Under the pieces are notes generated by a model, which was not told the origin of the DNA, did no database searches, and saw nothing but the letters and a program-made list of their open reading frames with translations. Positions 1 through 16,477 of a stretch of DNA of 64,000 nt are shown piece by piece. The stretch is from Dehalococcoidia bacterium (GTDB taxonomy: Bacteria > Chloroflexota > Dehalococcoidia > Lucifugimonadales > VXLM01): positions 1,843,531 through 1,907,530 of the forward strand of contig OZ251484.1 of NCBI GenBank assembly GCA_965242665.1. The letters are read 5' to 3'. The translations under genes were made by a program, and so were the position numbers. Within the stretch, counting starts at the first letter, position 1. Each line of letters begins with the position of its first letter.

Positions 1-818
1 ATTATATCAAGGGTGCCCCTGAACTTCCCATCGTCACCACGAGACGACAATATCATATCATCCCACACAAACTGAGATGAAAGTGCTTTGCATCGTATCA
101 ATGGAATAAGTTTTCTAATCCTCCCTATACGGCTCCCCACCCCATTACATGGATTGTAGGTTGCAACTCTTTTGATTGTATCATCTTCAGTGAAAACAGA
201 GTTGATATCTGTGTCTCCTGTATTTTCCCCTCGTTGAACTATTAGAGTATAACCAGATACCAAATTCCAACCTGTATCTAGTGACTCAATAGTAAGTTGA
301 ATTTCAGAACGAGAGTACATGGAAATAATTGGAGATTCAGAATATATCGACTCATGGAATATCCAGTATCCTAATCTAGGATTGATTGTCTGTAGAGTTC
401 CCTCAAACAACCCATATGTACCACGCACTGCCGAAAGCCAACCACCGGCTACTCTCGCATCATATGTTATGACCACTTGGACACGAGGATTATCCTGAAA
501 CGCTGATTCAATAGTAGTGCACGGTTTGATATGATGTAGAGAAACTAATCTCCAACCAGGAGTCAGTCTACTACTCTTGTTGTTCAATGAATGGAATATA
601 TTATCGTTTACCCAATTCTGGAGTTCGACAATTCTATCCCGTACATATAAGGATGATACCGACGCTGTATTAGACACGCTGCGCCGTAAGGTCTCTAGAA
701 TTCCTAGACCGATCAAGATATTGAGACCTATAGTGAGCCACCTCCAATCATTGAGGATAGTCCAGTCATTGAAGATACTCCACATTTGATTCAGCACCTC
801 TCGAATTCTGTCCAGCAT
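1..818 (-). CDS. Hypothetical low-GC membrane-anchored protein, 3' end runs off the window (>272 aa)
   Basis: Hand translation from ATG 818 (MLDRIREVLNQMWSIFNDWTILNDWRWLTIGLNILIGLGILETLRR...RGTLDI) has no stop before base 1. One N-terminal hydrophobic segment. Missing from the ORF track because it lacks a stop. Confidence 0.8.
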   Translation of the reverse strand, partial: MLDRIREVLNQMWSIFNDWTILNDWRWLTIGLNILIGLGILETLRRSVSNTASVSSLYVRDRIVELQNWVNDNIFHSLNNKSSRLTPGWRLVSLHHIKPCTTIESAFQDNPRVQVVITYDARVAGGWLSAVRGTYGLFEGTLQTINPRLGYWIFHESIYSESPIISMYSRSEIQLTIESLDTGWNLVSGYTLIVQRGENTGDTDINSVFTEDDTIKRVATYNPCNGVGSRIGRIRKLIPLIRCKALSSQFVWDDMILSSRGDDGKFRGTLDI

Positions 819-903
819 CGTGGTTGTTCGTCGACCAATGAACGATTGTTGCGGATACTACCACTGCATCCTCTTTGCCCTTGATAGTACCACCATACAC
901 GAT

Positions 904-919
904 TGACAACCAGTTGTCA
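904..919. promoter_or_regulatory. Perfect 7-2-7 palindrome TGACAAC-CA-GTTGTCA, operator-like
   Basis: Seen directly about 85 bp upstream of the low-GC ORF start. Confidence 0.45.
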
Positions 920-1014
920 TGGGTTTCCTCAACATTCCGGGAAAATGCCAGAAAACCGAATCAACTATAACTAACCAGAACGCATCCACGCGCCCTCACC
1001 CTCGCAGCTATCTC

Positions 1015-3193: not shown

Positions 3194-3222
3194 TTGACGT
3201 GAAAAGTTCGATATGATAGGAT
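3194..3222 (+). promoter_or_regulatory. Predicted sigma70 promoter TTGACG-N17-TAGGAT of the MarR-ABC operon
   Basis: Motif match. It overlaps ATG 3213, which implies the true MarR start is downstream (GTG 3234 or later). Confidence 0.5.
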
Positions 3223-3233
3223 ACTTCGAGTTA

Positions 3234-3746
3234 GTGGAACCAAAGGCGGCTCTCTTGCAACCAACGAGAAGAAAACTCATCGACCGCATTGTTGCCAGCA
3301 TGGATAGAATCGGGAGGCTCGGAAGGGCGCGCTACCGAGACGAGCTTGCGGGCTTCGACATGACCATGCCGCAAATCCGCACCCTCTACTTCCTGAGCCG
3401 CGGCCCTCAGCGCATGAGGGATATCTCCGACCACCTAATGCGCGGGATGCCCTCCGCAACGAGCATGATAGATCGACTCGTCGCCAAAGGATACGTCGAG
3501 CGCATCCCCAACCCCTCCGACCGTCGAGTCGTCCTCTGCCGGATAACCGACGCAGGACAAGAAGTGCTCGACCGCTTTTCGCGCATGGGCGCAATCCGCC
3601 TCGAATCCGTCGCCGACTCGTTGACCGACGAGGATCTGAATACCATCGCCCCGGCCCTGGACATCCTAGCCGCCGCGATGGCCGAGCAAATCACGTCTGA
3701 GGCGCACGCTTGCGACAATTCCGAGGCGAAGCCGCAATGCGGCTGA
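3234..3746 (+). CDS. MarR family transcriptional regulator (start uncertain)
   Basis: MTMPQIRTL...SATSMIDRLVAKGYVERIPNPSDRRVVLCRIT winged-helix pattern. Confidence 0.9.
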   Translation: MEPKAALLQPTRRKLIDRIVASMDRIGRLGRARYRDELAGFDMTMPQIRTLYFLSRGPQRMRDISDHLMRGMPSATSMIDRLVAKGYVERIPNPSDRRVVLCRITDAGQEVLDRFSRMGAIRLESVADSLTDEDLNTIAPALDILAAAMAEQITSEAHACDNSEAKPQCG

Positions 3747-3777
3747 CGACGCACCCCAACGACAGGAGGCCACTGCC

Positions 3778-5739
3778 ATGATGTCAGGCGGAATGGGCGG
3801 CGGAGGATACTACGGCGGGCGCGGCTATGGCGGACCCATGCGCCGCATGAACGAAGCAGAACTAGACCAAGACGAGGCAGGAAAGATCTACGACCATCGC
3901 ATCGTCACGCGATTGCTCTCCTACTTTCGACCGTATGCATCCATCGTCATCGTCGCCTTCATCGCTACCATGGCATATACCGCCACCGTCGTAGCCCTGC
4001 CGTTGATCGTAGCCAGAGTAATCGACGACTACATTCGACCAGGAGACCTCTCCGGCTTGAACTGGATCGTCGGAGTGTTCGTCGCCGTTGCCGCCGCACA
4101 GTTCATCGCAAGCTACCTCAACATGCGTCTCATGGCGCTCGCCGGACAAAACGTCCTCCGCACCCTCCGAGTAGAGCTGTTCAATCACATCCAACGCCTC
4201 TCCATGTCGTTCTTCGATAAGAACGAGGTCGGACGCATCATGTCCAGAGTCCAAAATGATGTGCGACAACTCCAAGAAGTCTTGTCCGTCTTCGTGAACA
4301 GCTTTGGACAAATACTCAGTCTCATCGGCATCGTCGGCGCGATGATGTTCTTGAACGTCCAGCTGGCGCTCATCACCCTGTCCGTCGTCCCCATTCTCTT
4401 CATCGCCTTGAACGTATGGCAGCGGTTCGCCCGCCGATCCTTCATGCGGGTCCGCACAGCCATCGCAGAGGTCAACTCCGGCCTCCAGGAAAACATCTCC
4501 GGCGTCAGGGTCGTTCAGAGCTTGAATCAGGAAGAGCGGAACATCCGCCGATTCGAGCAATCGAACGTTGCAAATCTCGAAGCCAACCTCCAAGCCAGCC
4601 GCCTCAGCGCCGCCCTCCTTCCCACCGTAGAGCTGCTAACATCCTTGGGTCTGGCGCTCGTCGTCTTCTTCGGCGGCTACATGGTCTTCGGCGGAGACGT
4701 CGAAGCAGGCGTGCTCGTCGCCTTCGCCCTCTACATCCAGCGCTTCTTCGAACCCGTCCGCACCCTCACGCAAGAATACGGCAGCTTGCAAAGAGCCATG
4801 GTCTCCGGAGAGCGCATCTTCGAAATACTCGACCGAACCCCGGACGTCGTAGAGCGGGACGACGCTCCCAACCTCCCTCCCATAAAGGGGAATATCGCCT
4901 ACCAAGACGTATCCTTCCACTACCAAGACGGCGAGCCAGTCCTGCAAAGCGTGAACCTCGACATCGCCGCCGGTCAGACGGTCGCCTTCGTCGGACCAAC
5001 CGGCGCAGGCAAGACGACCATGGTCTCCCTCCTCTTGCGACTCTACGACGTGACGGAAGGGCGTATCACCATCGACGGCGTCGACGTTCGAGATATTGCC
5101 CTCGACTCGCTCTACCACCAAGTCAGCGTCGTCCCCCAGGAGCCATACCTCTTCTCCGGCTCCACCATCGCAGACAACATCCGCTACAACCGCGCCGGGG
5201 TCTCAGACGAGCAGATCACCGCCGCGGCAAAGGCAGTGGGCGCGCACGAGTTCATCGCGAAACTCGAGCGCGGATACGATACCCCCCTGCAAGAGCGCGG
5301 AGGCAATCTGAGCATCGGGCAGCGCCAGCTCATTAGCTTCGCGCGCGCAGTCGTCGGAGAGCCCCGCGTCCTCATCCTCGACGAAGCGACCGCCAATATC
5401 GACACAAACTCCGAAATGCAGATACAGCGCGCGCTTACGGAGATGCTCGAACACCGAACCGCCGTCGTCATCGCACACCGCCTATCGACGATCCGAAACG
5501 CCGACGTAATCGCCGTCCTCGATGGCGGCAAGATAGTCGAGCAAGGCTCGCACGACGAGTTGACAGCGCTGAACGGCATGTATGCGCGGCTTCAATCGTT
5601 CGACAGCGCCGGACAAGAACACCTCCATCAACCCAAGCCCGGCCAACTCCCCCGGAGGCAAGCCGCCCAGTGGGCGCAGCGCGGTGGACATAGGCCCCGA
5701 CGCCCGGGGATGCGACCGCCCATGCGCGGCCGGGAGTGA
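3778..5739 (+). CDS. ABC exporter, fused TMD + ATPase (MdlB/Sav1866-like)
   Basis: Six TM segments, Walker A GPTGAGKTT, signature LSIGQ, Walker B ILDEATA, H-loop IAHRLST. Confidence 0.95.
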   Translation: MMSGGMGGGGYYGGRGYGGPMRRMNEAELDQDEAGKIYDHRIVTRLLSYFRPYASIVIVAFIATMAYTATVVALPLIVARVIDDYIRPGDLSGLNWIVGVFVAVAAAQFIASYLNMRLMALAGQNVLRTLRVELFNHIQRLSMSFFDKNEVGRIMSRVQNDVRQLQEVLSVFVNSFGQILSLIGIVGAMMFLNVQLALITLSVVPILFIALNVWQRFARRSFMRVRTAIAEVNSGLQENISGVRVVQSLNQEERNIRRFEQSNVANLEANLQASRLSAALLPTVELLTSLGLALVVFFGGYMVFGGDVEAGVLVAFALYIQRFFEPVRTLTQEYGSLQRAMVSGERIFEILDRTPDVVERDDAPNLPPIKGNIAYQDVSFHYQDGEPVLQSVNLDIAAGQTVAFVGPTGAGKTTMVSLLLRLYDVTEGRITIDGVDVRDIALDSLYHQVSVVPQEPYLFSGSTIADNIRYNRAGVSDEQITAAAKAVGAHEFIAKLERGYDTPLQERGGNLSIGQRQLISFARAVVGEPRVLILDEATANIDTNSEMQIQRALTEMLEHRTAVVIAHRLSTIRNADVIAVLDGGKIVEQGSHDELTALNGMYARLQSFDSAGQEHLHQPKPGQLPRRQAAQWAQRGGHRPRRPGMRPPMRGRE

Positions 5740-5799
5740 CCAGGGCCGCCGTCCTACCCGTCGCAAATCGAATTGACGCGCGCTACGATGCGCCCGCGG

Positions 5800-7551
5800 T
5801 CATAGATGACCCTCTGCCTTCCAAACTTCCCGCAGGACTCCAATCATACGGCGGTTCGTCTCCGCGTCCTTGACCGCAATCCGGATCGACCGGCTGCCAA
5901 GCCTCGGGGCCGTTGCCCCCGCATCCCGAAGGAACAAGCCGTACTCTCGACACCTCGCCATGAGGGCCGCAGCGTCGGGGCCGTACTCAGGCAGATGGCA
6001 GAGAAGATAGTTCGCCTCTCCTGGCACGACTGTGAAGTTCCCTATACCCTGCAAGTCCGCCGCCAACTGCGTTCGCAGTCGGTGCGTCTCCTGATACCGC
6101 TTGGCGTAGTATTCGGAGTCTTGCAATGCCATGACCGCCGCCATCTGCCCCGGCAAGCTCACTGCCCACGGGGGATTCAACGGCCTCAGCCGCTCGATCA
6201 CGCGGGGATGACCGCATAGGTATCCAACCCGCACGCCGCTGAGCGCATACGCCTTCGACATAGACTTGCAGACCACCACGTTCGGGCTATTCGCGGCGAA
6301 ATGCTCAAGCGATTCATGCTTCCCAACGTAGTCTACGTACGTCTCGTCGACCAAGACGATGCTATGCGGCGGGATGCCGCGCAGCAAATCTTCCAGAGCC
6401 GCCCGCGGGATGTGGCGTCCAGTCGGGTTGTTTGGGTTCACGATCACGGCCAGATCGTAACCCCTCATGAGCTCCTCTTCGAGCCGCCTTGGACTCACCG
6501 CATATCCGTCGCCGCGGCTCAATTCGAGCCGGCCTACTCTGCACCCAATGACGTTCTCGAAAACGTGCGTATACTCGCCGTACGTGGGGTCGAGAACAAG
6601 CACTCTCGAAGACGGCGAGAGCCATTGACGGAGGGCAAGGAAGATCAGGTTGGAAGAGCCCCCGCCCGGAAGCACGGACTCCTCGCGAACGCCGCGGCTC
6701 CGCGCTATCTGCGCAATCAGCCCCTCGCACCCCGTTGGAGGCGAGGTGCGAACCGCCCACGGCAGATACTCTCTCAGCGTGTCGATCACCTTCGGGGACG
6801 GTGGAAACCAAGCATCCAACACATCCGCGTTGATGATATGCGCGATGCTCCGCAGGTCTTCGAAGCCATGGCCAATGGCATCGAAAGAAGCGCCTCCGTG
6901 ATACGCTGTGGCCGACGCTCTCATTGGTATTTCAAGCTGCCAATCGAGCCTATTCAGCCTCTGATCGATGCTGCGTTTGGACGCCATCGTCTCCCCTAGG
7001 CGGTCCACGGAATCCCGCACGGCGTCGATCGTGCCGGTCAGGAGCTCGAACCGAACCGCCCCGGACGTCACTTGCCTGCCAGCCGGCCGGAGCCCTGCCT
7101 TCACATAGAGCCTCAGCAACTCCGCGCGGCCAATGGCAACGATGTTCCTGCCGCCCCTCGACTCGATCCATCGAAGGGCGGCGTACATGAGCACCGCAGC
7201 CGCCAAACTACCCCGAAACGCCCTCGCAACCGTGAGTAGGCGCAATTCGTACAAACCCTCGTCGAACGGCGCCGGCACGTCATCCCTGCGGAAATACTTG
7301 TCCACGGAATACGATCCATTGCCCGGCGGGGTAATGCTGATGAATCCAGCAATCAGACCGTTCGATTTGGCGACGATATACGAATTGAACTCGTCCAAAG
7401 GGTCGGTCAATCTGCCGTCGACGTTTTCCGGATGTTGGCCCAACTCCCTGGCATAGACCTCGTGGCGCAGCCTGAATATGTCGTTCATGTCGCAGGCAGT
7501 CGCCAGAGCGACCGTCAGGCCTTTCCGCGGTGATGGACCCGGCATTCTCAT
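5800..7551 (-). CDS. Fusion of GNAT-type N-acyltransferase and class I/II PLP enzyme (CobD/HisC-like)
   Basis: N-terminal FRLRHEVYARELG...YELRLLTV GNAT-like domain. C-terminal HGG, VNPNNPTG, VDETY and PLP-lysine motif SMSKAYALSGVRVGY. Confidence 0.85.
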   Translation of the reverse strand: MRMPGPSPRKGLTVALATACDMNDIFRLRHEVYARELGQHPENVDGRLTDPLDEFNSYIVAKSNGLIAGFISITPPGNGSYSVDKYFRRDDVPAPFDEGLYELRLLTVARAFRGSLAAAVLMYAALRWIESRGGRNIVAIGRAELLRLYVKAGLRPAGRQVTSGAVRFELLTGTIDAVRDSVDRLGETMASKRSIDQRLNRLDWQLEIPMRASATAYHGGASFDAIGHGFEDLRSIAHIINADVLDAWFPPSPKVIDTLREYLPWAVRTSPPTGCEGLIAQIARSRGVREESVLPGGGSSNLIFLALRQWLSPSSRVLVLDPTYGEYTHVFENVIGCRVGRLELSRGDGYAVSPRRLEEELMRGYDLAVIVNPNNPTGRHIPRAALEDLLRGIPPHSIVLVDETYVDYVGKHESLEHFAANSPNVVVCKSMSKAYALSGVRVGYLCGHPRVIERLRPLNPPWAVSLPGQMAAVMALQDSEYYAKRYQETHRLRTQLAADLQGIGNFTVVPGEANYLLCHLPEYGPDAAALMARCREYGLFLRDAGATAPRLGSRSIRIAVKDAETNRRMIGVLREVWKAEGHL

Positions 7552-7771
7552 CTCCCTCGATTATTGGTGCGTACCATTATGACAGACTCCCCGCACGAAG
7601 ACGATAGCGCGTCCCGAAGCAGCAGTTCCGCGTTTCCTCTACACTGCGCTTGGAGTGTCCCTACGTATACGCGGCGGCCGCAGACCACTGGATTTCTGAA
7701 TCCAGGACACACCGCACGCATAGAATAAACGGAACCGCGCCGACAGCGGTGAAGTCCGATGCAGGCCCATC

Positions 7772-8572
7772 CTAGCGCGGCCGCGCTGCCAACTCGATGG
7801 CGTCAGACGGAATCCACCCCTGAAGGTCGCCGCCGGGCAGCGCGATCCAACGCCATCCCTGACGAAATTCCACGATGCGTACTTGTGCGCCGCTGTGAAG
7901 TGTGAACTCCGTGGGATACTGCGCGCCCGGCCCGCTTAGGACATCGATCTCCTGTGCGGTTATGATGCCTGCATCGTCGTTGGGGTTCGCGTACAACATG
8001 CTCGACAGCAGCAGTAAAGAGAAGAACGCCGCTGTCATCCCCGCGACCGAACTCCCCTGCACGAGCGCCCTGAGTCGCATTGTCGGACGCAGCGCCGCCG
8101 CTCCCATCCCCAGAGCGCTGCACACCCACAGCGCGAGTGCTCCTATGCCAATCTCCTCCGCCGTGGCCAGTCTTCGCCCAAAAGCCGATATGCTTGCGAT
8201 GAGGGAGTCTTCTCCCTCGATCTGATCGATGGTCCGGCTGCGCGCCAGCTCGAGGTTTGCGCGGATGTCCGGGTCGCGGGGAGACAGATCCTGGGCGCGC
8301 AAATAGTTGAGGATGGCGCGGCCGAGATCCTCCATCTTGAAGTAGGCGTTCCCCGCGTTGTAATACAGCGCGGCATCCTCGTACCCCCGCTCGATGAGAT
8401 CCTCATACGCTTGTACGGCCCCTGCGAAATCCCCCCGTTCGTACCTATCGTTCGCATCGGACATCGTGTCCGCAGCCGAGCGTTCTTGCGCCAGCGCAGC
8501 GCCGCCGGCCGCCGCAAGGACCGCCGTGCCCCCCGCCAATAGACCGATCAATAGCCGCCAGAGACCCCTCAT
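7772..8572 (-). CDS. batE: BatE-like TPR + SH3 protein
   Basis: TPR (YYNAGNAYFKMEDLGRAILNY), TM helices, C-terminal SH3-like (FTLHSGAQV...GWI); operon context. Confidence 0.8.
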   Translation of the reverse strand: MRGLWRLLIGLLAGGTAVLAAAGGAALAQERSAADTMSDANDRYERGDFAGAVQAYEDLIERGYEDAALYYNAGNAYFKMEDLGRAILNYLRAQDLSPRDPDIRANLELARSRTIDQIEGEDSLIASISAFGRRLATAEEIGIGALALWVCSALGMGAAALRPTMRLRALVQGSSVAGMTAAFFSLLLLSSMLYANPNDDAGIITAQEIDVLSGPGAQYPTEFTLHSGAQVRIVEFRQGWRWIALPGGDLQGWIPSDAIELAARPR

Positions 8573-10425
8573 TCCGAAATCGCTCCGTCCAACTCATCCA
8601 AGAGACGTCCAACCATCTCATAATATCCAGTGAACTCTGCGGAGTCGCTCGACGCGCGTCCGTACTTTGCCACCTCTCCAGTGGATAGCACGTCCTCGAC
8701 GCGGCCCGCCAAGTCGGGACTCACTCCCGCTTCGAGCAGCTTCTGGGCAAGCGCCTCGTGCGTAAGCCCGCCCATCGGCGCGCCGAGCCGCGTGGAGAGG
8801 TACGTCAACAAGATATCCGCCATTACAGCCGCCGGATCCTCCGTCGCCGGAGCCGCCAGCGCAATTGCCGCGTGCGCCTCCGGCAGCGCATTCCGCCGCC
8901 GCGCCGCGGCCTCGTCGTACCTTGCCTTCCGACGACTCCACGCCGCGGCCAACGCCAGCGCCATCAAAGGCGCGCCCCACGCCGCCCAATATGCCGCGCT
9001 CCCAACGAACCCGCCGTCAGACTGCCGCGGCAGCGACGACGGCGCAGCCTTGATGTGCCGCACATCCGACCCCGCACGCTCCACGCCCCCAGCGCCGTCC
9101 GACGCAGGCACGGTCACTCCGTCCGGGTCTGCTATGGTCATCGGAATCGGATCCGTAGCCGCCGCTGTATATTCCCCCGTCTCCGTATTGAAGAACGGGT
9201 ACGTGATGCGTGGAATCTCCAACTCCCCTGCCCGCTGCGGCACTAAGATGACCTCGTAGTCCCGCGCGCCCACGAGACGCCCGTCTATCACGCGGCTCCG
9301 ATCCGTCGCCGGCGACTCGAACACCCGCCAATCCACGAACTCCGGCCACGCCGGATCCGGCAGAAACTCAATGTTCCCTTCCCCAGAGATCGACACCGTG
9401 AGCTGCACCGGCTCGTTGACTTTCCCCTCCGTGCTGTCCACCTCCGACGTCATGTCGAACCTGCCGACCGCCCCGGTGAAGCCCGCAGGTGCGTCCGCCG
9501 GCAGCGGACGCACCTGCATGAGTATCGGTTCGGTCTCCAGATAATTGGGCGGTGCGTAGAAGTCGATCGGCACCGACAACTCAGCCGGTTCGATCGTGAT
9601 CGTCCCGACCACGCTGGGAAAGAGCACCGTTTGTAGTTCGACCACCGTATACCGGTCGAAGCCGAACGCCTCGGTGTATTCCGTCTCATCGATCTCCTGG
9701 TTGTTCCAAAAGCCTGAAAAGTCCGGCGGCTGATACTGCGGCCTCCCGTACTGCCCAAACGATGAAAGCACAGACCGCCGATAGAACTGAAATGTATACG
9801 TGACCTGCTCCCCCAAGTACGGACGGTCGTCGTCCACCGACGCCCTAACGAATATCGCAGGATATCGCTGGTCCTCTTGCGCTCCGCTCTGAGGCGCGGA
9901 ATCTCCCGTACTAGGCGCCGCGCCCTCCGTCCCTAGGCCGCGGTACACCCGAACCTGGATATCCTCCGTGCGGTATGTCCGCCCGCCAATCGCAGCCTCA
10001 ATGGATGGAATCGTTATCGTTCCCTCGCGCGTCGCAACGAATGGGTAGCGGAAAGATACCAGTGTCGTAAGCGACCCATTCGTGAGGGTGGACTGTCGAA
10101 ACATCGACGGCTGCCCGGCGAGTCGCAGTCCGTCGATGTCTGGTAGTTCCGGCAACCTCGGGTTCAGCGGCCCTCCAGTCACCGTAACCGTCAGGTTCAA
10201 CCTCTCCCCAACCGCCACCTCCGACCGGTCTACCTCTGCGACGACCTCCGGCTCCTGTGCAGGCGGCTGCTGCGCGTGCGCGCCAGACCCACCCGCAACC
10301 GCAACCACGGCGACGGCAGCGCAAATCGCCCACGCGACGCGGACGGATCCCGCCGCCAGAACGCAGCGTGCGCGCCGCATCGTTTGGTTCAATACCATGA
10401 GACCACAACTACCAGTCGAATTCAC
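8569..10425 (-). CDS. batD: BatD family protein (start uncertain)
   Basis: Signal peptide, repeated Ig-like BatD segments (GAVGRFDM, GEGNI), one TM; operon context. Confidence 0.85.
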   Translation of the reverse strand: MNSTGSCGLMVLNQTMRRARCVLAAGSVRVAWAICAAVAVVAVAGGSGAHAQQPPAQEPEVVAEVDRSEVAVGERLNLTVTVTGGPLNPRLPELPDIDGLRLAGQPSMFRQSTLTNGSLTTLVSFRYPFVATREGTITIPSIEAAIGGRTYRTEDIQVRVYRGLGTEGAAPSTGDSAPQSGAQEDQRYPAIFVRASVDDDRPYLGEQVTYTFQFYRRSVLSSFGQYGRPQYQPPDFSGFWNNQEIDETEYTEAFGFDRYTVVELQTVLFPSVVGTITIEPAELSVPIDFYAPPNYLETEPILMQVRPLPADAPAGFTGAVGRFDMTSEVDSTEGKVNEPVQLTVSISGEGNIEFLPDPAWPEFVDWRVFESPATDRSRVIDGRLVGARDYEVILVPQRAGELEIPRITYPFFNTETGEYTAAATDPIPMTIADPDGVTVPASDGAGGVERAGSDVRHIKAAPSSLPRQSDGGFVGSAAYWAAWGAPLMALALAAAWSRRKARYDEAAARRRNALPEAHAAIALAAPATEDPAAVMADILLTYLSTRLGAPMGGLTHEALAQKLLEAGVSPDLAGRVEDVLSTGEVAKYGRASSDSAEFTGYYEMVGRLLDELDGAISE

Positions 10426-11218
10426 TTGGTGGATCGCGCGGGACGATCACCTGCTGTAGCCGCTCCTGAAGCGTCTGCGCATCATCGCTCATCGCCTCCA
10501 GCAGCTGCCGCGCCTGATCCTCCGTTATCGGCTCCGTCTGTGGACGCGACTCCATCTCCTGCTGATTCGGCTCCCCGTCCTGCTCCTGCGCGTCCTGTTG
10601 TTGCCCATCCTGCTCCTGCTGATCCCCTTCTTCCTGCGGTTCTTGTTCTTGGTCGTCCTGTTGTTGCCCCTGCTCGTTCGGTTGAGGCTCCTGCTCCTGC
10701 CCTTGCGGCCCTGGCTCCGGACTTTCATCCGGCTCCTGCCCCTGTTGAGGTTCCGGCGTCGGAAGCAGCCTCATCGCCAATTCCAAGTTATGCCGAGTCT
10801 CCTCGTTGTCCGGCTCCAACCGCAGAGCCTCCTTGAACGCAACGACCGCATCGGGGTACTCCTGCATTTGGAAGAATGCGTTGCCTCGGTTGAACTGCGC
10901 GTCAGCGCGCAGGGGATTCTCCTCCGCACGCTTGATAGCCTCGTCGTACTCTTGGATCGCTCCGCCGTAGTCCCCCGATCGATACAGCGCGTTCCCTGCA
11001 TTGTAGTACGGTTCGCCGGCGTCCGGTGCCAGTTCTTGCGCCGTTCGATACGCTTCTGCCGCCGCGCCGTAGTCCCCTGCATCGAGCAGCTCGTGTCCGG
11101 AGTCGTTCGCCCGTTCGGGGGCACCGCTGCACCCCAGCGCGGTCACCGCAAAGACGCCGGCCAGCAAGAATATCCGGAAGCCCCCGCCGATCGTGCAGAC
11201 TACGGCGTGCTCAAGCAT
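10409..11218 (-). CDS. batC: BatC-like TPR lipoprotein with Gln/Glu-rich linker
   Basis: TPRs YYNAGNALY and FNRGNAFF, HNLELA, Q/E-rich stretch, terminal DW. Confidence 0.8.
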   Translation of the reverse strand: MLEHAVVCTIGGGFRIFLLAGVFAVTALGCSGAPERANDSGHELLDAGDYGAAAEAYRTAQELAPDAGEPYYNAGNALYRSGDYGGAIQEYDEAIKRAEENPLRADAQFNRGNAFFQMQEYPDAVVAFKEALRLEPDNEETRHNLELAMRLLPTPEPQQGQEPDESPEPGPQGQEQEPQPNEQGQQQDDQEQEPQEEGDQQEQDGQQQDAQEQDGEPNQQEMESRPQTEPITEDQARQLLEAMSDDAQTLQERLQQVIVPRDPPSEFDW

Positions 11219-12257
11219 TGCCAGGCACCTCCCCGGATACGGACCGACGCCTTCCGACCCGAATCGAAAACCGATCCGTCATCACCTCCGCGGCCGCAAG
11301 CGCAAGAACTCCCGCAAGTAAGAATATCTGAAACCGCTCGATCTTCGTGCGGCTGAACTCGCTCTCCAACGTCTCATCTTCGAACGACTGGATCTCAACT
11401 GCAAGGTCGGAAATCGCGTCTGGATCCGCCGCACGGAAGTACCGCCCGCCTCCTGCTTCCGCCACGAGCACAAGCGTCTCTTCGTCCAACCGCGATATGA
11501 TTACGTCTCCTTGTGCGTCCTCTCTGAAGCCCGCGAGCGCGCCGCTCTCGTCGTATTCGGGCACCGGCTCCCCCTGTACGGAACCGAACCCAATCGTGTA
11601 CACCACCGCCCCCTCAGATGCTGCCCGACGCGCCTCCTCGACCGGATCCCCCTCGTGATTCTCCCCGTCAGTCATTACCACGATCACCTTCTGCCCCGTG
11701 CGCTGGTCGCTGAACCCTGTCATCGCCGTCTCGATCGCCTCTGCGATCACTGTGCCCTGCCGCGTGATGGCGTCAGGGTGTGCGTGGCTCAGGTACGTCC
11801 TCGCCGTCGCGTAATCGAATGTTATCGGAAATTGGATGAAGCTTGCCCCAGAAAACAAGACGATGCCGATCTCGTCGCCAGTGAGCCTTGACATCAAGTC
11901 CGATATCTCCAGCTTGGCGCGGTCGAGTCGACTCGGCTTCACGTCTTGCGCTAGCATACTCCGCGATATGTCCAATGCTACCATCACTTGCACCCCTCGA
12001 TGCTCCACGACCTCCACGTCGCTTCCCCACTGCGGACGCGCCAAGGCCGCGATCACCAGCCCCGCGCCGACGAACCACAATACCGCTCGCCGCAGCCGCG
12101 CGCCCCGGTTGATCGACGCGCTCAAACGCTCGATCAACGCAGGATCCCCGATGCGCAGGACCGACGCCCGACGCCGCGCAGACATCCACCACACGAAGCC
12201 GACCAGCACCGGCAGCGCAGCCAACGCCCATAAATACTGCGGAGCCCCAAACGTCAT
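11211..12257 (-). CDS. batB: VWA domain protein BatB
   Basis: ALARPQWG, MIDAS DISRSM, TDGENHEG. Confidence 0.88.
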   Translation of the reverse strand: MTFGAPQYLWALAALPVLVGFVWWMSARRRASVLRIGDPALIERLSASINRGARLRRAVLWFVGAGLVIAALARPQWGSDVEVVEHRGVQVMVALDISRSMLAQDVKPSRLDRAKLEISDLMSRLTGDEIGIVLFSGASFIQFPITFDYATARTYLSHAHPDAITRQGTVIAEAIETAMTGFSDQRTGQKVIVVMTDGENHEGDPVEEARRAASEGAVVYTIGFGSVQGEPVPEYDESGALAGFREDAQGDVIISRLDEETLVLVAEAGGGRYFRAADPDAISDLAVEIQSFEDETLESEFSRTKIERFQIFLLAGVLALAAAEVMTDRFSIRVGRRRSVSGEVPGNA

Positions 12258-12267
12258 TCCAACCCCC

Positions 12268-13272
12268 TCACGGTATCTTCCTGAATACGGTATGCGATAG
12301 AACCAGCTCGACTAGCAGCAGCGCAAGCGCCGGAATCAAGAACCATCCCGCCAACTCGCGGTACCGCGTAAAATGCAGCACCTCCACCTCCGACTTCTCC
12401 AACGCGTCGATCTCGGTGTAGATGCCGCGCAGTCCAGCCTCGTCTGTGGCGCGGTAGAACTTTGCGCTCGTGATCTCCGCGATCTCTCGCAGCGTCTCCT
12501 CGTCCAACGGGCTCTCACGCACCGTGACTCCAGAACCAAACGGACCGAGCTGCTGTCGAAACGCGCCGGCCCTCCGGCCCACCCCAATCGTATACACCTT
12601 GATCCCCAATGCCTCCGCGGCTCGCGCGACTGTGATCGGGTCGATCTCGCCCGCGTTGTTCACTCCGTCCGTTATCAGAGTCACCAACTTGTTCTCGGCC
12701 GTCGAGTCCTTCAGCATATTCGCCGCCGTCGCGAGCCCGCTGCCGATCGCCGTCCCGTCCTGAATCCGCAGCTCCTCCGCAAGCCGAACGTCTTCCAGCA
12801 AACGCTGCAAGACCCCATGATCCAACGTTGGAGGACTCTGCGTGAACGCCTCCCGCGAAAAGACTACCAAGCCGATCCGGTCGTACTTTCGCTCCGAGAT
12901 GAAGTCCGAAATGATCCGCTTCGCCGCATCCAACCGGTGTGGACGAAAGTCCGTCGCCCCCATGCTCCCAGAGATGTCCAATGCGACCGCAATGTCCACC
13001 CCCTCCCCTCGGATCACCTCCCTCGCCTCCCCCGACTGCGGCCTCGCAACAGCGATGATGACCAGCGCCAGCGCCAGGAACCGCAGACTGGGAACGAACG
13101 GCATCGCCCGCAGCCGCAAGGACTTTCCCATTCCAGAAACTAGCCTAGTGTCCGCGTATCTCATACCCGCCGGACCCATCCCCCGCTTCCACCAGTACGG
13201 AAGCAGCGCCAAGACAGGCGCAGCCGGCAGCAGCGCGAGCAGCCACGGAGAGCCAAAGCTCAAATCGCTCAC
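12268..13272 (-). CDS. batA: VWA domain protein BatA
   Basis: AVARPQ, MIDAS DISGSM, DGTAIG, TDGVNNAG, KVYTIGVG. Confidence 0.9.
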   Translation of the reverse strand: MSDLSFGSPWLLALLPAAPVLALLPYWWKRGMGPAGMRYADTRLVSGMGKSLRLRAMPFVPSLRFLALALVIIAVARPQSGEAREVIRGEGVDIAVALDISGSMGATDFRPHRLDAAKRIISDFISERKYDRIGLVVFSREAFTQSPPTLDHGVLQRLLEDVRLAEELRIQDGTAIGSGLATAANMLKDSTAENKLVTLITDGVNNAGEIDPITVARAAEALGIKVYTIGVGRRAGAFRQQLGPFGSGVTVRESPLDEETLREIAEITSAKFYRATDEAGLRGIYTEIDALEKSEVEVLHFTRYRELAGWFLIPALALLLVELVLSHTVFRKIP

Positions 13273-14384
13273 ACGGTCACCTCCCGTCTGGCATCCGCCC
13301 CGTACTCCAACCGTCCATTGGCGGGGGCCGGCCGAGTCACTTCCACGATGTGCCGGGCCTGGCCCGATGCCTCATACGCGCTCGAAACGGACGGTGTGTA
13401 CTTGGCGAACTTCACCAAGTCGCACTCGTTCAACAGATCGAGGATCAATCGAACCCGCTCGACATCCAGCGCCGACCTCCGCAGCGCGCTTGCGATCTCG
13501 TCCGTCGTCATGTCGATGGCATCGACCGGGCTTACATCGGTTAAATACATCGCATGAATGTACATCCGCACGGCGTCCGCGACGAGCGTGTAATGCTGCT
13601 TGAAATGACCGTCCTCGGGCAGATCGAGCCGCTCGATGCGGTCGAGCTCGTCGATCGCCGCCTCCCACGGTGTGCGTGTGTCGACGACCGGAAGCGGCAG
13701 ATCCCCGGGCATCCGCCTTCGACGATAGAGGTAGTACGCGCCTGCCGCGGCCGCGGCCAGCACAGCAGCTGCCAATACCGCTGCGGCGGCCCGCACGGCG
13801 GGCTGCTCCAACAATGGCGTCGAAAGATCGGCCTGGGGTTGGATGTCCTCCGGTGGATCGTCTGGACCGGACAACACCGAGTGCACGACCACCTCCAGCG
13901 GAAAAGGATATACTTCCTCCTCGCTCCCATCCGGATGGCGGACGGTTATTGGGATGTCCGGCGTCTGCAGCTTCCCCGTGCCTAGCGCCGCCGCTTCGAT
14001 ATCCTGCCTCGTGGTCACCGTCCCGTCATCGTTTGCCGTCCTCCGCCCCGGCGTCTGATTGCGTACCTCGAACGGCCCCCATTGACGATACCGAGGCAGC
14101 CACCCCACGACCACCGTTTGATCCGGCGAATGCGTTATCTCCAAGACGAGCGGAACTACATCGCCAAACTGCAACTCCGCCCCCTCTTCCACGTCCGCCT
14201 TGAACGTGATGCGTACAGGCGGCTCGGATTCCTGCGCCCAGGCGACCACCGATCCCGCCGCGCTTACGATTGCCGCCCCTCCCGCAGCCAACAGCAGCCA
14301 TCGCGCGCACGCATCGAAGCCCAGCCTGCCCGGCCAGCCGATCCCGCCGCGGGCGGCCCGACGCCTGTGCATCCCTCCATTCAT
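13269..14384 (-). CDS. Bat operon membrane protein (DUF4381-like)
   Basis: ATG 14384 overlaps the DUF58 stop. Signal/TM segments, C-terminal CDLVKFAKY pattern. Confidence 0.7.
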   Translation of the reverse strand: MNGGMHRRRAARGGIGWPGRLGFDACARWLLLAAGGAAIVSAAGSVVAWAQESEPPVRITFKADVEEGAELQFGDVVPLVLEITHSPDQTVVVGWLPRYRQWGPFEVRNQTPGRRTANDDGTVTTRQDIEAAALGTGKLQTPDIPITVRHPDGSEEEVYPFPLEVVVHSVLSGPDDPPEDIQPQADLSTPLLEQPAVRAAAAVLAAAVLAAAAAGAYYLYRRRRMPGDLPLPVVDTRTPWEAAIDELDRIERLDLPEDGHFKQHYTLVADAVRMYIHAMYLTDVSPVDAIDMTTDEIASALRRSALDVERVRLILDLLNECDLVKFAKYTPSVSSAYEASGQARHIVEVTRPAPANGRLEYGADARREVTV

Positions 14385-15268
14385 CGCGATGGCCTTCGCA
14401 GCCGATTCCTGAAGAACGCCCCGACCTCCGCGACGTAATCCTCGTCCGTCCGAACCTTGACCCGGTCCACGCCGGCCGAGGAGAAGACATCCTTCTTGTC
14501 TCGGTCGAACTGCGCGGCTCTCTCGGAAAACTCCCGCCTCCACGAGCGGCTTCCAGTATCGACCCAGCGCAACTCCCCACTCTCCGCATCCTCCAGAGCG
14601 ACAATCCCCACGTTCGCCATCTCGTGCTCCAAGGGATCGCTCATGTCGAACGCTACAACGTCATGGCGGCGGCTCGTTACCGAAAGCGCCTGCCGGTACG
14701 TCCCGGGATCGACCAAGAAATCGGAAACGACGAACACGATGCTGCGCCGCTTCAAGAGCAAGTTGACGGTGTTCAAAGCCAGCTCGATGTCGGTCATCGT
14801 GCCTTCTGGCTGGAACACCAGCAGATCGCGCACCATGCGGAGGACGTGGCTCCGCCCCTTGCGCGGCGGGACGAGCAGCTCTACTCTGTCGCTGAAGATC
14901 AGCAGCCCCACCTTGTCGTTGTTCGTAGTAGCAGCAAAGGACATGACTGCAGCCAGCTCCGCCGCCAACTCGCGCTTGAACCGATTCCGAGTGCCGAATT
15001 CTCCAGACCCGCTGGCATCAACCACCAGCATGACCGTCAACTCGCGCTCTTCGGCGTAGTTCTTCACATGCGGTTCGCCGGTGCGGGCCGTTACGTTCCA
15101 ATCGATCGTTCGCACATCGTCCCCGGGATAGTACTGGCGCACCTCGTGAAACTCCATGCCTCGGCCCTTGAACACCGAGTTATACTCGCCGGCCAAGCTA
15201 TCGGTGACGAGCTTGCGAGTCGTAATCTCAATCCGCCGAATCTTGCGGATCAACTCGTTCGTCAGCAT
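14381..15268 (-). CDS. DUF58 domain protein
   Basis: GRGMEFHEVRQYYPGDDVRTIDWNVTAR, EEREL, DASGS. Confidence 0.92.
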   Translation of the reverse strand: MLTNELIRKIRRIEITTRKLVTDSLAGEYNSVFKGRGMEFHEVRQYYPGDDVRTIDWNVTARTGEPHVKNYAEERELTVMLVVDASGSGEFGTRNRFKRELAAELAAVMSFAATTNNDKVGLLIFSDRVELLVPPRKGRSHVLRMVRDLLVFQPEGTMTDIELALNTVNLLLKRRSIVFVVSDFLVDPGTYRQALSVTSRRHDVVAFDMSDPLEHEMANVGIVALEDAESGELRWVDTGSRSWRREFSERAAQFDRDKKDVFSSAGVDRVKVRTDEDYVAEVGAFFRNRLRRPSR

Positions 15269-15269
15269 C

Positions 15270-16265
15270 TTACGGAACTTCGACGTTGTCCAGGATGCGC
15301 TGGACGATCTGGGTGGACGTGACCTCTTGAGCCTCCGCCTCGAACGTCGTGATGACACGGTGCCTGAGAATATCCGGCGCGAGCTGCTTGACGTCTTCCG
15401 GCGTGACGTATCCCCGCCCTTTTAGAAACGCATGGGCCCGCGCCGCAGTAATCAAGAAGATGCCCGCCCGCGGCGACGCTCCATACGAGATCAGCGTGCG
15501 CAGATTGTCGAGTCCGGCCTCCCCGGGATCCCGCGTCGCCACCACCAAGCTCAGGACATAGTCCTTTATCTTGTCGTCGACGTACACCTGACGCACCACC
15601 TCCCGCGCGTCCAAAATGTACTGTGGCTCGATGACTGGGTGCACCTCCGCAGTCGGCCCCCCGGTCATCCGGTCGATGATCTCCCGCTCCTCCGAACGAT
15701 CCGGATACTCCACGACCACCTTGAGCATGAACCGGTCGACCTGTGCCTCCGGGAGCGGATACGTTCCCTCCTGCTCTATCGGATTCTGCGTCGCCAAGAC
15801 CAAGAACGGAGACTCGATCCGATGCGTCGCGTCACCGATCGTGACCTGCCCCTCCTGCATCGCCTCCAACAAAGCGCTCTGCACCTTGGCAGGGGCTCGA
15901 TTCACTTCGTCCGCAAGAATGAGATTCGCGAAGACCGGCCCCTTCCGCACGCTGAACTCACTCGTTCGCGGATTGTATATCTGCGTGCCGATGAGGTCCC
16001 CGGGCAGAAGATCCGGCGTAAACTGAATGCGGGAGAATTCCCCATTCATGGCCTGTCCGATCGTCTTGACGAGGAGGGTCTTCGCCAACCCAGGAACGCC
16101 TTCCAAGAGGATGTGCCCATCAGCCAAGAGACCCACCAAGACCCGCTCGACGAGCTTGTCTTGCCCGATGATCGTCTTCCGAATCTCTGCCGTCAAGCTG
16201 TGGACGAACGGCGCCTCCTTCTCTACCATCTCGTTGATCTGCCGAACGTCTGCAAGGTCCATCAT
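15270..16265 (-). CDS. moxR: MoxR family AAA ATPase
   Basis: LLEGVPGLAKT, RIQFTPDLLPGD, DEVNRAPAKVQSALLEAM, NPIEQEGTYPLPEAQVDRF. Confidence 0.96.
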   Translation of the reverse strand: MMDLADVRQINEMVEKEAPFVHSLTAEIRKTIIGQDKLVERVLVGLLADGHILLEGVPGLAKTLLVKTIGQAMNGEFSRIQFTPDLLPGDLIGTQIYNPRTSEFSVRKGPVFANLILADEVNRAPAKVQSALLEAMQEGQVTIGDATHRIESPFLVLATQNPIEQEGTYPLPEAQVDRFMLKVVVEYPDRSEEREIIDRMTGGPTAEVHPVIEPQYILDAREVVRQVYVDDKIKDYVLSLVVATRDPGEAGLDNLRTLISYGASPRAGIFLITAARAHAFLKGRGYVTPEDVKQLAPDILRHRVITTFEAEAQEVTSTQIVQRILDNVEVP

Positions 16266-16477
16266 GATGATTCGGATGCTCCTACAGTTCCACAATTTGG
16301 GTCATTCCTCGCTCTCGCGTGCAATAACCCAGCCCTTCCTATAGAGTAAACGTCAAAACGACCAGTTCGGTTAGGTTTCGCCCAGGCCCCGCTGTCGAGC
16401 GCCCCTCGAACCAGCGTCCCAATTCTCTATTCTACCGTCGACTCCCACTGATTTGAACCTGCCGCCATCGACTCTCA

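Follow-up and report, generated by a model that had tools for sequence, protein, structure and literature searches.

We examined a 64,000-nucleotide stretch of a Dehalococcoidia genome (GenBank assembly GCA_965242665.1, contig OZ251484.1, positions 1,843,531 to 1,907,530 of the forward strand; hereafter the window). A single intact open reading frame (ORF) of 583 codons spans positions 5800-7551 on the minus strand and ends with a stop codon at 5800-5802. It joins an N-terminal GNAT-fold acyltransferase to a C-terminal pyridoxal phosphate (PLP) enzyme of the CobD/HisC superfamily. The fusion gene is single-copy in its genome. Coordinates of the features discussed below are collected in Table 1.

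A homologue search among 5.8 billion proteins returned more than 3850 matches. The best 120 were all full length, at 55-98% identity. Matches in this number and of this length show that the ORF is a real gene; it did not arise by chance. A GAGGGAG box resembling a ribosome-binding site lies immediately before the first ATG, with no spacer, and 6 nt before the second. In addition, relatives that are 94-98% identical are annotated as proteins of 581 residues beginning MPGPS. Hence, translation probably starts at Met3.

Both halves of the protein are recognised by Pfam. Residues 275-571 match Aminotran_1_2 (146 bits; cut-off 19.7). Three GNAT-type families match within residues 24-163: Acetyltransf_1 (24.6 bits; cut-off 20.7), FeeM (PF21926; 24.5 bits; cut-off 27) and Acetyltransf_5 (PF13444; 22.3 bits; cut-off 22.4). 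An AlphaFold2 model of the whole protein, built on a 52-sequence alignment, had a predicted local distance difference test score (pLDDT) of 92.4 and a predicted template modelling score (pTM) of 0.78. The GNAT half folded alone had a pLDDT of 92.8. A preliminary description, made from the letters and their translations, had reported one 583-residue ORF with both domains intact. The Pfam matches and the model bear this out.

In structure comparisons, the best matches of the GNAT half were the acyl-homoserine-lactone synthases BjaI, LasI, RpaI and TofI, with template modelling (TM) scores of 0.66-0.72; FeeM ranked 19th. LuxI-type synthases and FeeM thus provide the closest folds for this half. 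The likeness includes the start motif R-x-R-x-x-V-Y...EL and, on strand beta4, a conserved Glu/Arg pair. The site formed by E102 and R104 presumably corresponds to the Glu/Arg pair of the LuxI-type enzymes. The family Autoind_synth (PF00765) had no match in the fusion protein at E <= 0.01. A further difference concerns the amine acceptor. In the fusion this would be supplied by the attached PLP domain, and not by S-adenosylmethionine or a free amino acid. For the PLP half, Salmonella CobD was the best structural match (TM 0.89-0.90, 25% identity), followed by many HisCs.

The catalytic residues of both halves are intact. Across 52 full-length and 36 GNAT-half sequences, the invariant residues of the GNAT half are R29, E36, Q39, T74, E102, R104 and L121. 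Those of the PLP half include H218-G-G, D402, K433, R441 and R557, and R542 is kept in 51 of 52 sequences. The marks of fold-type I PLP enzymes are present, with K433 as the Schiff-base lysine, D402 as the aspartate facing the pyridine nitrogen and R441 as the arginine facing the PLP phosphate: these three residues align with K216, D185 and R224 of CobD, and the lysine of the E. coli HisC LSKAF motif falls in the same column as K433. Equivalences to CobD and HisC were counted along printed alignments. In CobD and HisC, a pair of arginines anchors the phosphate or carboxylate of the substrate. R542 and R557 match this pair. Hence, the substrate of the PLP half is probably a phosphate ester.

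Table 1. Positions of the fusion gene, its parts and the associated features named in the text. Positions refer to the window unless a locus (L) or the genome's own contig (G000:C1) is given.
Feature	Position	Strand	Remark
Whole ORF	5800-7551	-	First ATG at 7551; probable start Met3 at 7545, giving 581 residues
GAGGGAG ribosome-binding-like box	7552-7558	-	6 nt ahead of ATG 7545, 0 nt ahead of ATG 7551
GNAT-fold N-acyltransferase domain, LuxI/FeeM branch	7027-7518	-	Residues ~12-175
E102-L-R104, strand beta4	7240-7248	-	Family-invariant
Two-helix linker	6910-7026	-	Residues ~176-214; pLDDT ~62-91; poorly conserved
Fold-type I PLP domain, CobD/HisC superfamily	5803-6909	-	Residues 215-583
H218-G-G220	6892-6900	-	Invariant; common to Chloroflexota CobD-like proteins (H in 25/30), not HisC
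Lys433, Schiff-base lysine, SMSK motif	6253-6255	-	Aligned with Lys216 of Salmonella CobD
Arg542 and Arg557	5881-5928	-	Aligned with Arg323/Arg337 of CobD and Arg322/Arg335 of E. coli HisC
Weak terminator-like hairpin	7734-7750	-	In 220-bp gap, 3' of TPR/SH3 gene
PlsY homologue, der-plsY-gpsA arrangement	G000:C1:274107-274649		
Solitary PlsY paralogues	G000:C1:2707785-2708288; 3359820-3360326; 2539211-2539633		
CdsA-family gene overlapping the fusion stop codon	L092 10794-11597; L093 10773-11576; L158 5749-6552; L159 about 5770-6534		Streptomyces plasmids

The PLP half beside CobD and HisC

Relatives of the fusion are named 'histidinol-phosphate transaminase' in public annotations. Hence, the protein could be read as an isozyme of HisC, or of CobD, with an N-terminal acetyltransferase appendage. 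The curated NCBIfam models do not agree with this. The PLP half scored 211-213 bits against TIGR01140 (CobD), under the cut-off of 290.55, and 191-192.5 bits against TIGR01141 (HisC), under the cut-off of 276.55. We assembled comparison sets from Chloroflexota genomes, consisting of 30 probable CobDs (250-287 bits, whole model) and 27 true HisCs, and aligned these with the PLP domains of fusion proteins. The maximum-likelihood tree contained three separate sets, with branch support (SH-aLRT) of 100 for the fusion proteins, 95 for the CobD-like proteins and 100 for HisC. This tree is unrooted and has no outgroup; it separates the three sets and does not indicate whether CobD or HisC is the sister of the fusion clade.

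The pocket motifs also differ. In the fusion set alone, L245-D-A-W248 takes the place of N-x-N-P (F-S-x-N-x-N-P in CobD) and S270-P-P272 takes the place of Y-P-D. Both N-x-N-P and Y-P-D are common to HisC and the CobD-like proteins. Where CobD has S-x-T-K the fusion reads S-x-S-K, and S432 is common to the fusion set and HisC. The HGG motif, E326 and W462 are common to the fusion and CobD-like sets; nothing else of the CobD pocket motifs is kept. We also considered Tyr405 as a marker for transaminases. The equivalent residue is Phe in Salmonella CobD (Phe188) and SMUL_1544, and Tyr in HisC and Rv3772. The marker was dropped, since Tyr is found in 28 of the 30 Chloroflexota CobD-like proteins.

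CobD, the L-threonine-O-3-phosphate decarboxylase of Salmonella enterica (1lc5/1lc8), together with SMUL_1544 (6oux), is the best match of the PLP half in both sequence and structure, and equivalents of HGG, Lys216, Arg224, Arg323 and Arg337 are retained. The fusion differs in its sub-threshold score, its separate clade, its L-D-A-W and S-P-P motifs and the attached GNAT domain. The genomic setting differs as well. A separate true HisC is encoded elsewhere in the same genome (G000:C1:992952-994001; 325.5 bits). Searches of this genome, which is 94% complete, found no match to CbiB (PF03186) or CobS (PF02654), two enzymes of the cobamide nucleotide loop that would take up what CobD makes.

The preliminary description had noted that no histidine or cobalamin genes adjoin the fusion, and we find none nearby in the window. 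It had also named complementation of hisC or cobD, combined with the lack of an acylated product that depends on the GNAT domain, as the outcome that would count against a synthase. The computational counterpart of that test was negative, given the separate HisC and the searches for CbiB and CobS. Domain phylogeny and structure prediction, two checks it proposed, placed the PLP half in a third clade beside CobD-like proteins and HisC, and modelled both folds confidently. A housekeeping function in making histidine or cobamides is therefore very unlikely: the scores lie under the cut-offs, the clade is separate, the motifs are altered, HisC is encoded elsewhere, and the searches gave no CbiB or CobS. 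In our estimate, the isozyme explanation has next to no chance of being correct.

Relatives of the fusion and their neighbouring genes

The best 120 matches come from Dehalococcoidia, Nitrospirota, Verrucomicrobiota, Planctomycetota, Acidobacteriota and Omnitrophota, and across these groups the identity of full-length relatives reaches 55-70%. Full-length relatives at 40-70% identity number in the thousands across many phyla, and most bear the histidinol-phosphate transaminase name. A scan of one genome per species identified at least 579 species with a relative. The closest were metagenome-assembled genomes (MAGs) of other Dehalococcoidia, at 62-66% identity. Plasmids of Streptomyces carry full-length copies (47-49% identity), again annotated as histidinol-phosphate transaminase. 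Further homologue searches added Bacteroidota (Muriicola, Carboxylicivirga), Spirochaetota and one cyanobacterium. In the ESM Atlas, the family includes archaeal clusters, Thermoplasmatota among them. A named Bacillota relative was not found in homologue searches with the window protein and two divergent AT-rich members, in cluster look-ups, in the genome scan, in a plasmid search or in the ESM Atlas. No description of a GNAT-PLP fusion was found in the literature searched.

Longer forms of 623-701 residues also exist and are high-GC. The longest (L155, 5236-7341) has an N-terminal extension of ~130 residues, and its contig also encodes PCNA. Hence, the family extends to archaea or eukaryotes.

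Within Chloroflexota the gene is rare. Among 201 sampled genomes, a full-length fusion was present in one, which is the genome studied here, and a PLP-only form in one other. These tallies, and those behind the set of probable CobDs, take in three unpublished genomes (G038, G145 and G173); the fusion is absent from all three, and none of them entered an alignment. The PLP-only homologue has 382 residues (L157, 1483-2631), and its identity to fusion residues 215-575 is 57%. It belongs to a Dehalococcoidia genome (G045) that is 100% complete, and a search across that genome found no GNAT relative. DNA of the stretch studied here is also present in several sponge-metagenome runs.

We clustered the neighbouring genes in the 80 nearest loci. 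No universal partner or conserved operon was found across these loci. The commonest neighbour, a B12-binding radical-SAM/DUF4070 gene, adjoins the fusion in 10 of 80 loci, in Verrucomicrobiota and Planctomycetota. It lies directly upstream in several, and its product may tailor the acyl chain. Examples are L019, L024, L034, L053 and L071, among others, and L002 (6530-7924). PlsC-type acyltransferases follow, with 8 of 80 loci, and there is also a single PlsC-GNAT fusion. A C45/AAT-TPR protein is encoded in 6 of 80. Genes for thioesterase, FabG-like, AMP-binding, FabD-like and MBOAT proteins are scattered among the loci. In Dehalococcoidia, plsY adjoins the fusion in one locus (L012) and lies ~4 kb off in another (L044). 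On Streptomyces plasmids, a gene of the CdsA family (CTP_transf_1, annotated 'phosphatidate cytidylyltransferase') overlaps the stop codon of the fusion by 4 nt in four of five loci; the overlap was not found in the fifth (L160). Since no partner is universal, the fusion enzyme can apparently act on central metabolites by itself.

One environmental MAG has a same-strand block (L091, 3842-7942) comprising an MFS transporter, a 75-residue ORF, the fusion and a DUF3419 gene that overlaps the fusion end. DUF3419 is the family to which the betaine-lipid enzyme BtaA belongs.

Stand-alone relatives of the GNAT half occur as well. One, 199 residues long (P0185; L161, 784-2696), adjoins a class-III aminotransferase gene in divergent orientation. 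The same GNAT type is found in an 858-residue read-through protein (P0219) that joins it to IspD, PAC2 and Aminotran_3 domains. The gene of another stand-alone relative, of 207 residues (P0181; L156, 888-4429), shares 4 nt with the beginning of a gene for a 973-residue hybrid histidine kinase (HisKA-HATPase-REC-Hpt). To judge from the gene order, this layout resembles a signal synthase paired with its sensor.

In the window, no lipid gene adjoins the fusion. The fusion is directly preceded, on its own strand, by a complete MoxR/DUF58/BatA-D operon (7772-16295), which reads MoxR (15270-16295), DUF58 (14381-15358), an unknown 424-residue gene, BatA, BatB, a BatC-like TPR gene, BatD and a TPR/SH3 gene. 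A gap of 220 bp separates the last of these from the fusion gene. The weak hairpin within the gap hints that the fusion may be its own transcription unit; terminator-like hairpins in the window are no more frequent than in shuffled sequence. MoxR, DUF58 and DUF4129 genes also adjoin the fusion in the closest relative's locus (L001). There the orientation is divergent, and the operon is absent from other Dehalococcoidia loci. Hence, we rejected the Bat/MoxR operon as a functional partner, and we treat the adjacency in the window and in L001 as coincidence. Downstream, a MarR gene and then one for an ABC exporter (3213-5739, plus strand) converge on the 3' end of the fusion; the exporter is a fused ABC_membrane and ABC_tran protein of 653 residues. 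In another Dehalococcoidia locus (L029), an ABC ATPase gene is likewise convergent and downstream of the fusion. At the edge of the window (1-1000), GC content falls to 0.43, compared with about 0.60-0.65 elsewhere, and this stretch may be foreign DNA. It contains an ORF (3-818, minus strand) with no Pfam match.

Candidate reactions of the two halves

We think it rather likely that the gene encodes a self-contained, two-step synthase of an N-acyl amino alcohol or its phosphate. In the first step, the C-terminal PLP domain would convert a three-carbon phospho-metabolite into a small primary amine that carries a phosphate, most likely by glutamate-dependent transamination of dihydroxyacetone phosphate (DHAP) to serinol phosphate. 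In the second step, the N-terminal LuxI/FeeM-like domain would move an acyl chain from acyl carrier protein (ACP) or CoA onto the amine. The resulting N-acyl serinol phosphate would be an amide-linked look-alike of lysophosphatidic acid. It could be dephosphorylated to N-acyl serinol, or handed over to PlsY-, PlsC- or CdsA-type enzymes. We infer the substrates, the step order and the fate of the product. Serinol phosphate as the specific amine is a tentative choice, to which we give a little less than an even chance.

The same logic, in which an amine is made and then N-acylated, had been put forward in the preliminary description, with the PLP half as an amino acid decarboxylase. The two-step part of that proposal is supported by a strictly conserved fusion, a complete set of catalytic residues in both halves and both predicted folds. 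The decarboxylase part is unsupported. The PLP half has its own clade and its own pocket motifs, and the only functional data for look-alike enzymes point to serinol.

By analogy of function, the closest known system is the hm-NAS N-acyl serinol synthase. As described in two reports that cite Cohen et al. 2017 (PMC9605164; bioRxiv 10.1101/2025.04.11.648385), single hm-NAS genes from Gemella haemolysans, Desulfitobacterium hafniense DP7 and Bacillus sp. 2_A_57_CT2 lead to N-palmitoyl or N-oleoyl serinol in E. coli. Thus, one gene suffices for a long-chain N-acyl amine, and the acylating part is of the PF13444/FeeM type. The systems differ in host, which for hm-NAS is human-body Bacillota and here is a member of the Dehalococcoidia, and the product reported for hm-NAS is the dephosphorylated amide. 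We liken the two by function and not by sequence. In the hm-NAS enzyme, Cohen et al. (2017) are also reported to have found an aminotransferase domain, with serinol as its presumed product.

Serinol products require transamination of a ketone, so the hm-NAS data speak for a transaminase. Enzymes that convert DHAP to serinol phosphate are known. Cj1437, of the Campylobacter jejuni capsule pathway, makes (S)-serinol phosphate in this way (PMC11800397), and the N-domain of RtxA is a second example (PMC3222319). In the same C. jejuni pathway, Cj1436 decarboxylates L-serine phosphate (PMC11800397). Hence, both of the competing reactions occur in nature. Like the PLP half proposed here, these enzymes make small phosphorylated amino alcohols that are then amide-bonded to a carboxyl group. 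Cj1437 and Cj1436 differ in that they stand alone and in that the amide partner is a polysaccharide glucuronate, joined by an ATP-dependent ligase and not by a GNAT; the likeness is one of description only.

The sequence by itself does not discriminate between transamination and decarboxylation; indirect evidence leans towards the former. N-acyl serinol is what hm-NAS genes yield, a class-III aminotransferase is another partner of this GNAT type, and genes of the PlsY, PlsC and CdsA types adjoin relatives of the fusion, as does the DUF3419 gene of L091. Such partners need a product with a phosphate and a free hydroxyl, which fits the serinol phosphate route. Several points weigh against our interpretation. 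The PLP half stands a little closer to the CobD-like decarboxylases than it does to HisC, sharing HGG, E326 and W462, scoring 213 compared with 192 bits and having CobD as its best structural match. The top structural matches of the GNAT half include both CoA- and ACP-dependent synthases, so that either acyl-CoA or acyl-ACP may be the donor. No partner gene is found in the window or in most of the 80 nearest loci, and those found elsewhere vary by lineage. Finally, the activity proposed for the clade is deduced by comparison, and hm-NAS is a putative relative.

Two other assignments for the PLP half have to be considered. A CobD-type decarboxylase would convert O-phospho-L-serine or O-phospho-L-threonine to the phosphate of ethanolamine or of aminopropanol. 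N-acylation of that amine by the GNAT would then give N-acyl ethanolamine phosphate or its propanol analogue. The nearest sequences and structures (CobD, 1lc5; SMUL_1544, 6oux) are decarboxylases, the NCBIfam CobD model outscores that for HisC, and the residues shared with the CobD-like set point the same way. Furthermore, Cj1436 demonstrates that a serine-phosphate decarboxylase can feed an amine into amide formation (PMC11800397). However, the PLP half lies outside the CobD-like clade and lacks N-x-N-P and Y-P-D. N-acylated ethanolamine phosphate or aminopropanol phosphate would have no free hydroxyl for the PlsC- or PlsY-type partners of relatives. Moreover, the reported hm-NAS products are serinol amides (PMC9605164), and the GNAT type found here pairs with a class-III aminotransferase. 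We therefore consider decarboxylation unlikely.

Alternatively, the aminotransferase could supply an unusual amino acid. The sub-threshold FeeM and Acetyltransf_5 matches would suit such a product. In ornithine lipid synthesis, OlsB and OlsA, or the bifunctional OlsF, combine an N-acyltransferase of the PF13444 branch with a PlsC-type O-acyltransferase (PMC11631085). The PlsC-type neighbours and the PlsC-GNAT fusion among relatives recall this arrangement of aminolipid synthesis. The fusion studied here differs because the GNAT is joined to a PLP enzyme in place of an O-acyltransferase, and its acceptor is probably no amino acid. The PLP half keeps the arginine pair of HisC and CobD and the HGG motif of CobD, which hold the phosphate ester in those enzymes. 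The CdsA-like partner in Streptomyces suggests a phosphomonoester product. For these reasons, an amino acid acceptor appears improbable, more so than the decarboxylase. Transamination of DHAP followed by N-acylation is the sequence of reactions that we prefer.

Lipid or signal

The same chemistry could yield a released signal, either quorum-sensing-like or directed at a host, in place of a building block for membrane lipids. Among solved structures, autoinducer synthases have the folds nearest to that of the GNAT half, and the stand-alone relative P0181 is coupled to a hybrid histidine kinase gene. The fusion gene is solitary in most loci and patchy in Chloroflexota, with one full-length and one PLP-only match in 201 genomes. 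In addition, N-acyl serinols act on host receptors (PMC9605164), and the DNA of the window recurs in sponge metagenomes. Conversely, no sensor or regulator gene of this kind lies beside the fusion in the window. Recurrent partners elsewhere are of the phospholipid type (CdsA-like, PlsC and PlsY) and not receptors, and conservation of 55-60% across phyla would be unusual for signal synthases. On balance, we doubt that the product is a signal and rate this at about one chance in a handful.

Starting from N-acyl serinol phosphate as the product, the enzyme might instead provide entry to an undescribed, glycerol-free pathway for phospholipids. In such a pathway, DHAP would be aminated and not reduced, and the serinol phosphate would be N-acylated by the fusion, O-acylated by paralogues of PlsY or PlsC and CTP-activated by CdsA-like enzymes. 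Verrucomicrobiota, Planctomycetota, Acidobacteriota, some Dehalococcoidia and Streptomyces would then contain amide-linked 'serinol phospholipids'. The genome studied here encodes four PlsY (G3P_acyltransf) homologues, one in the canonical der-plsY-gpsA arrangement and three as solitary paralogues (Table 1). Given these three extra copies, it would run the pathway with unlinked genes. The paralogues are compatible with an unlinked downstream step and are not evidence for one. We regard the complete pathway as speculative and, on present comparisons, on the unlikely side, if marginally less so than a signal.

Judged by its sequence, the fusion is a real, intact and misannotated member of a widespread and biochemically under-studied family of bifunctional enzymes, and embodies no new principle. 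What the window contributes is a solitary member, carried by a Dehalococcoidia genome with DNA that is also present in sponge metagenomes. Thousands of genomes carry the gene under the wrong name, 'histidinol-phosphate transaminase', including those of culturable Streptomyces, Verrucomicrobium, Muriicola and Carboxylicivirga. If our interpretation is correct, one protein turns DHAP and an acyl thioester, both central metabolites, into an amide lipid. This lipid could be an N-acyl serinol that is active on receptors, or it could form the backbone of membrane phospholipids of an unrecognised class. Either outcome would correct annotation at large scale.

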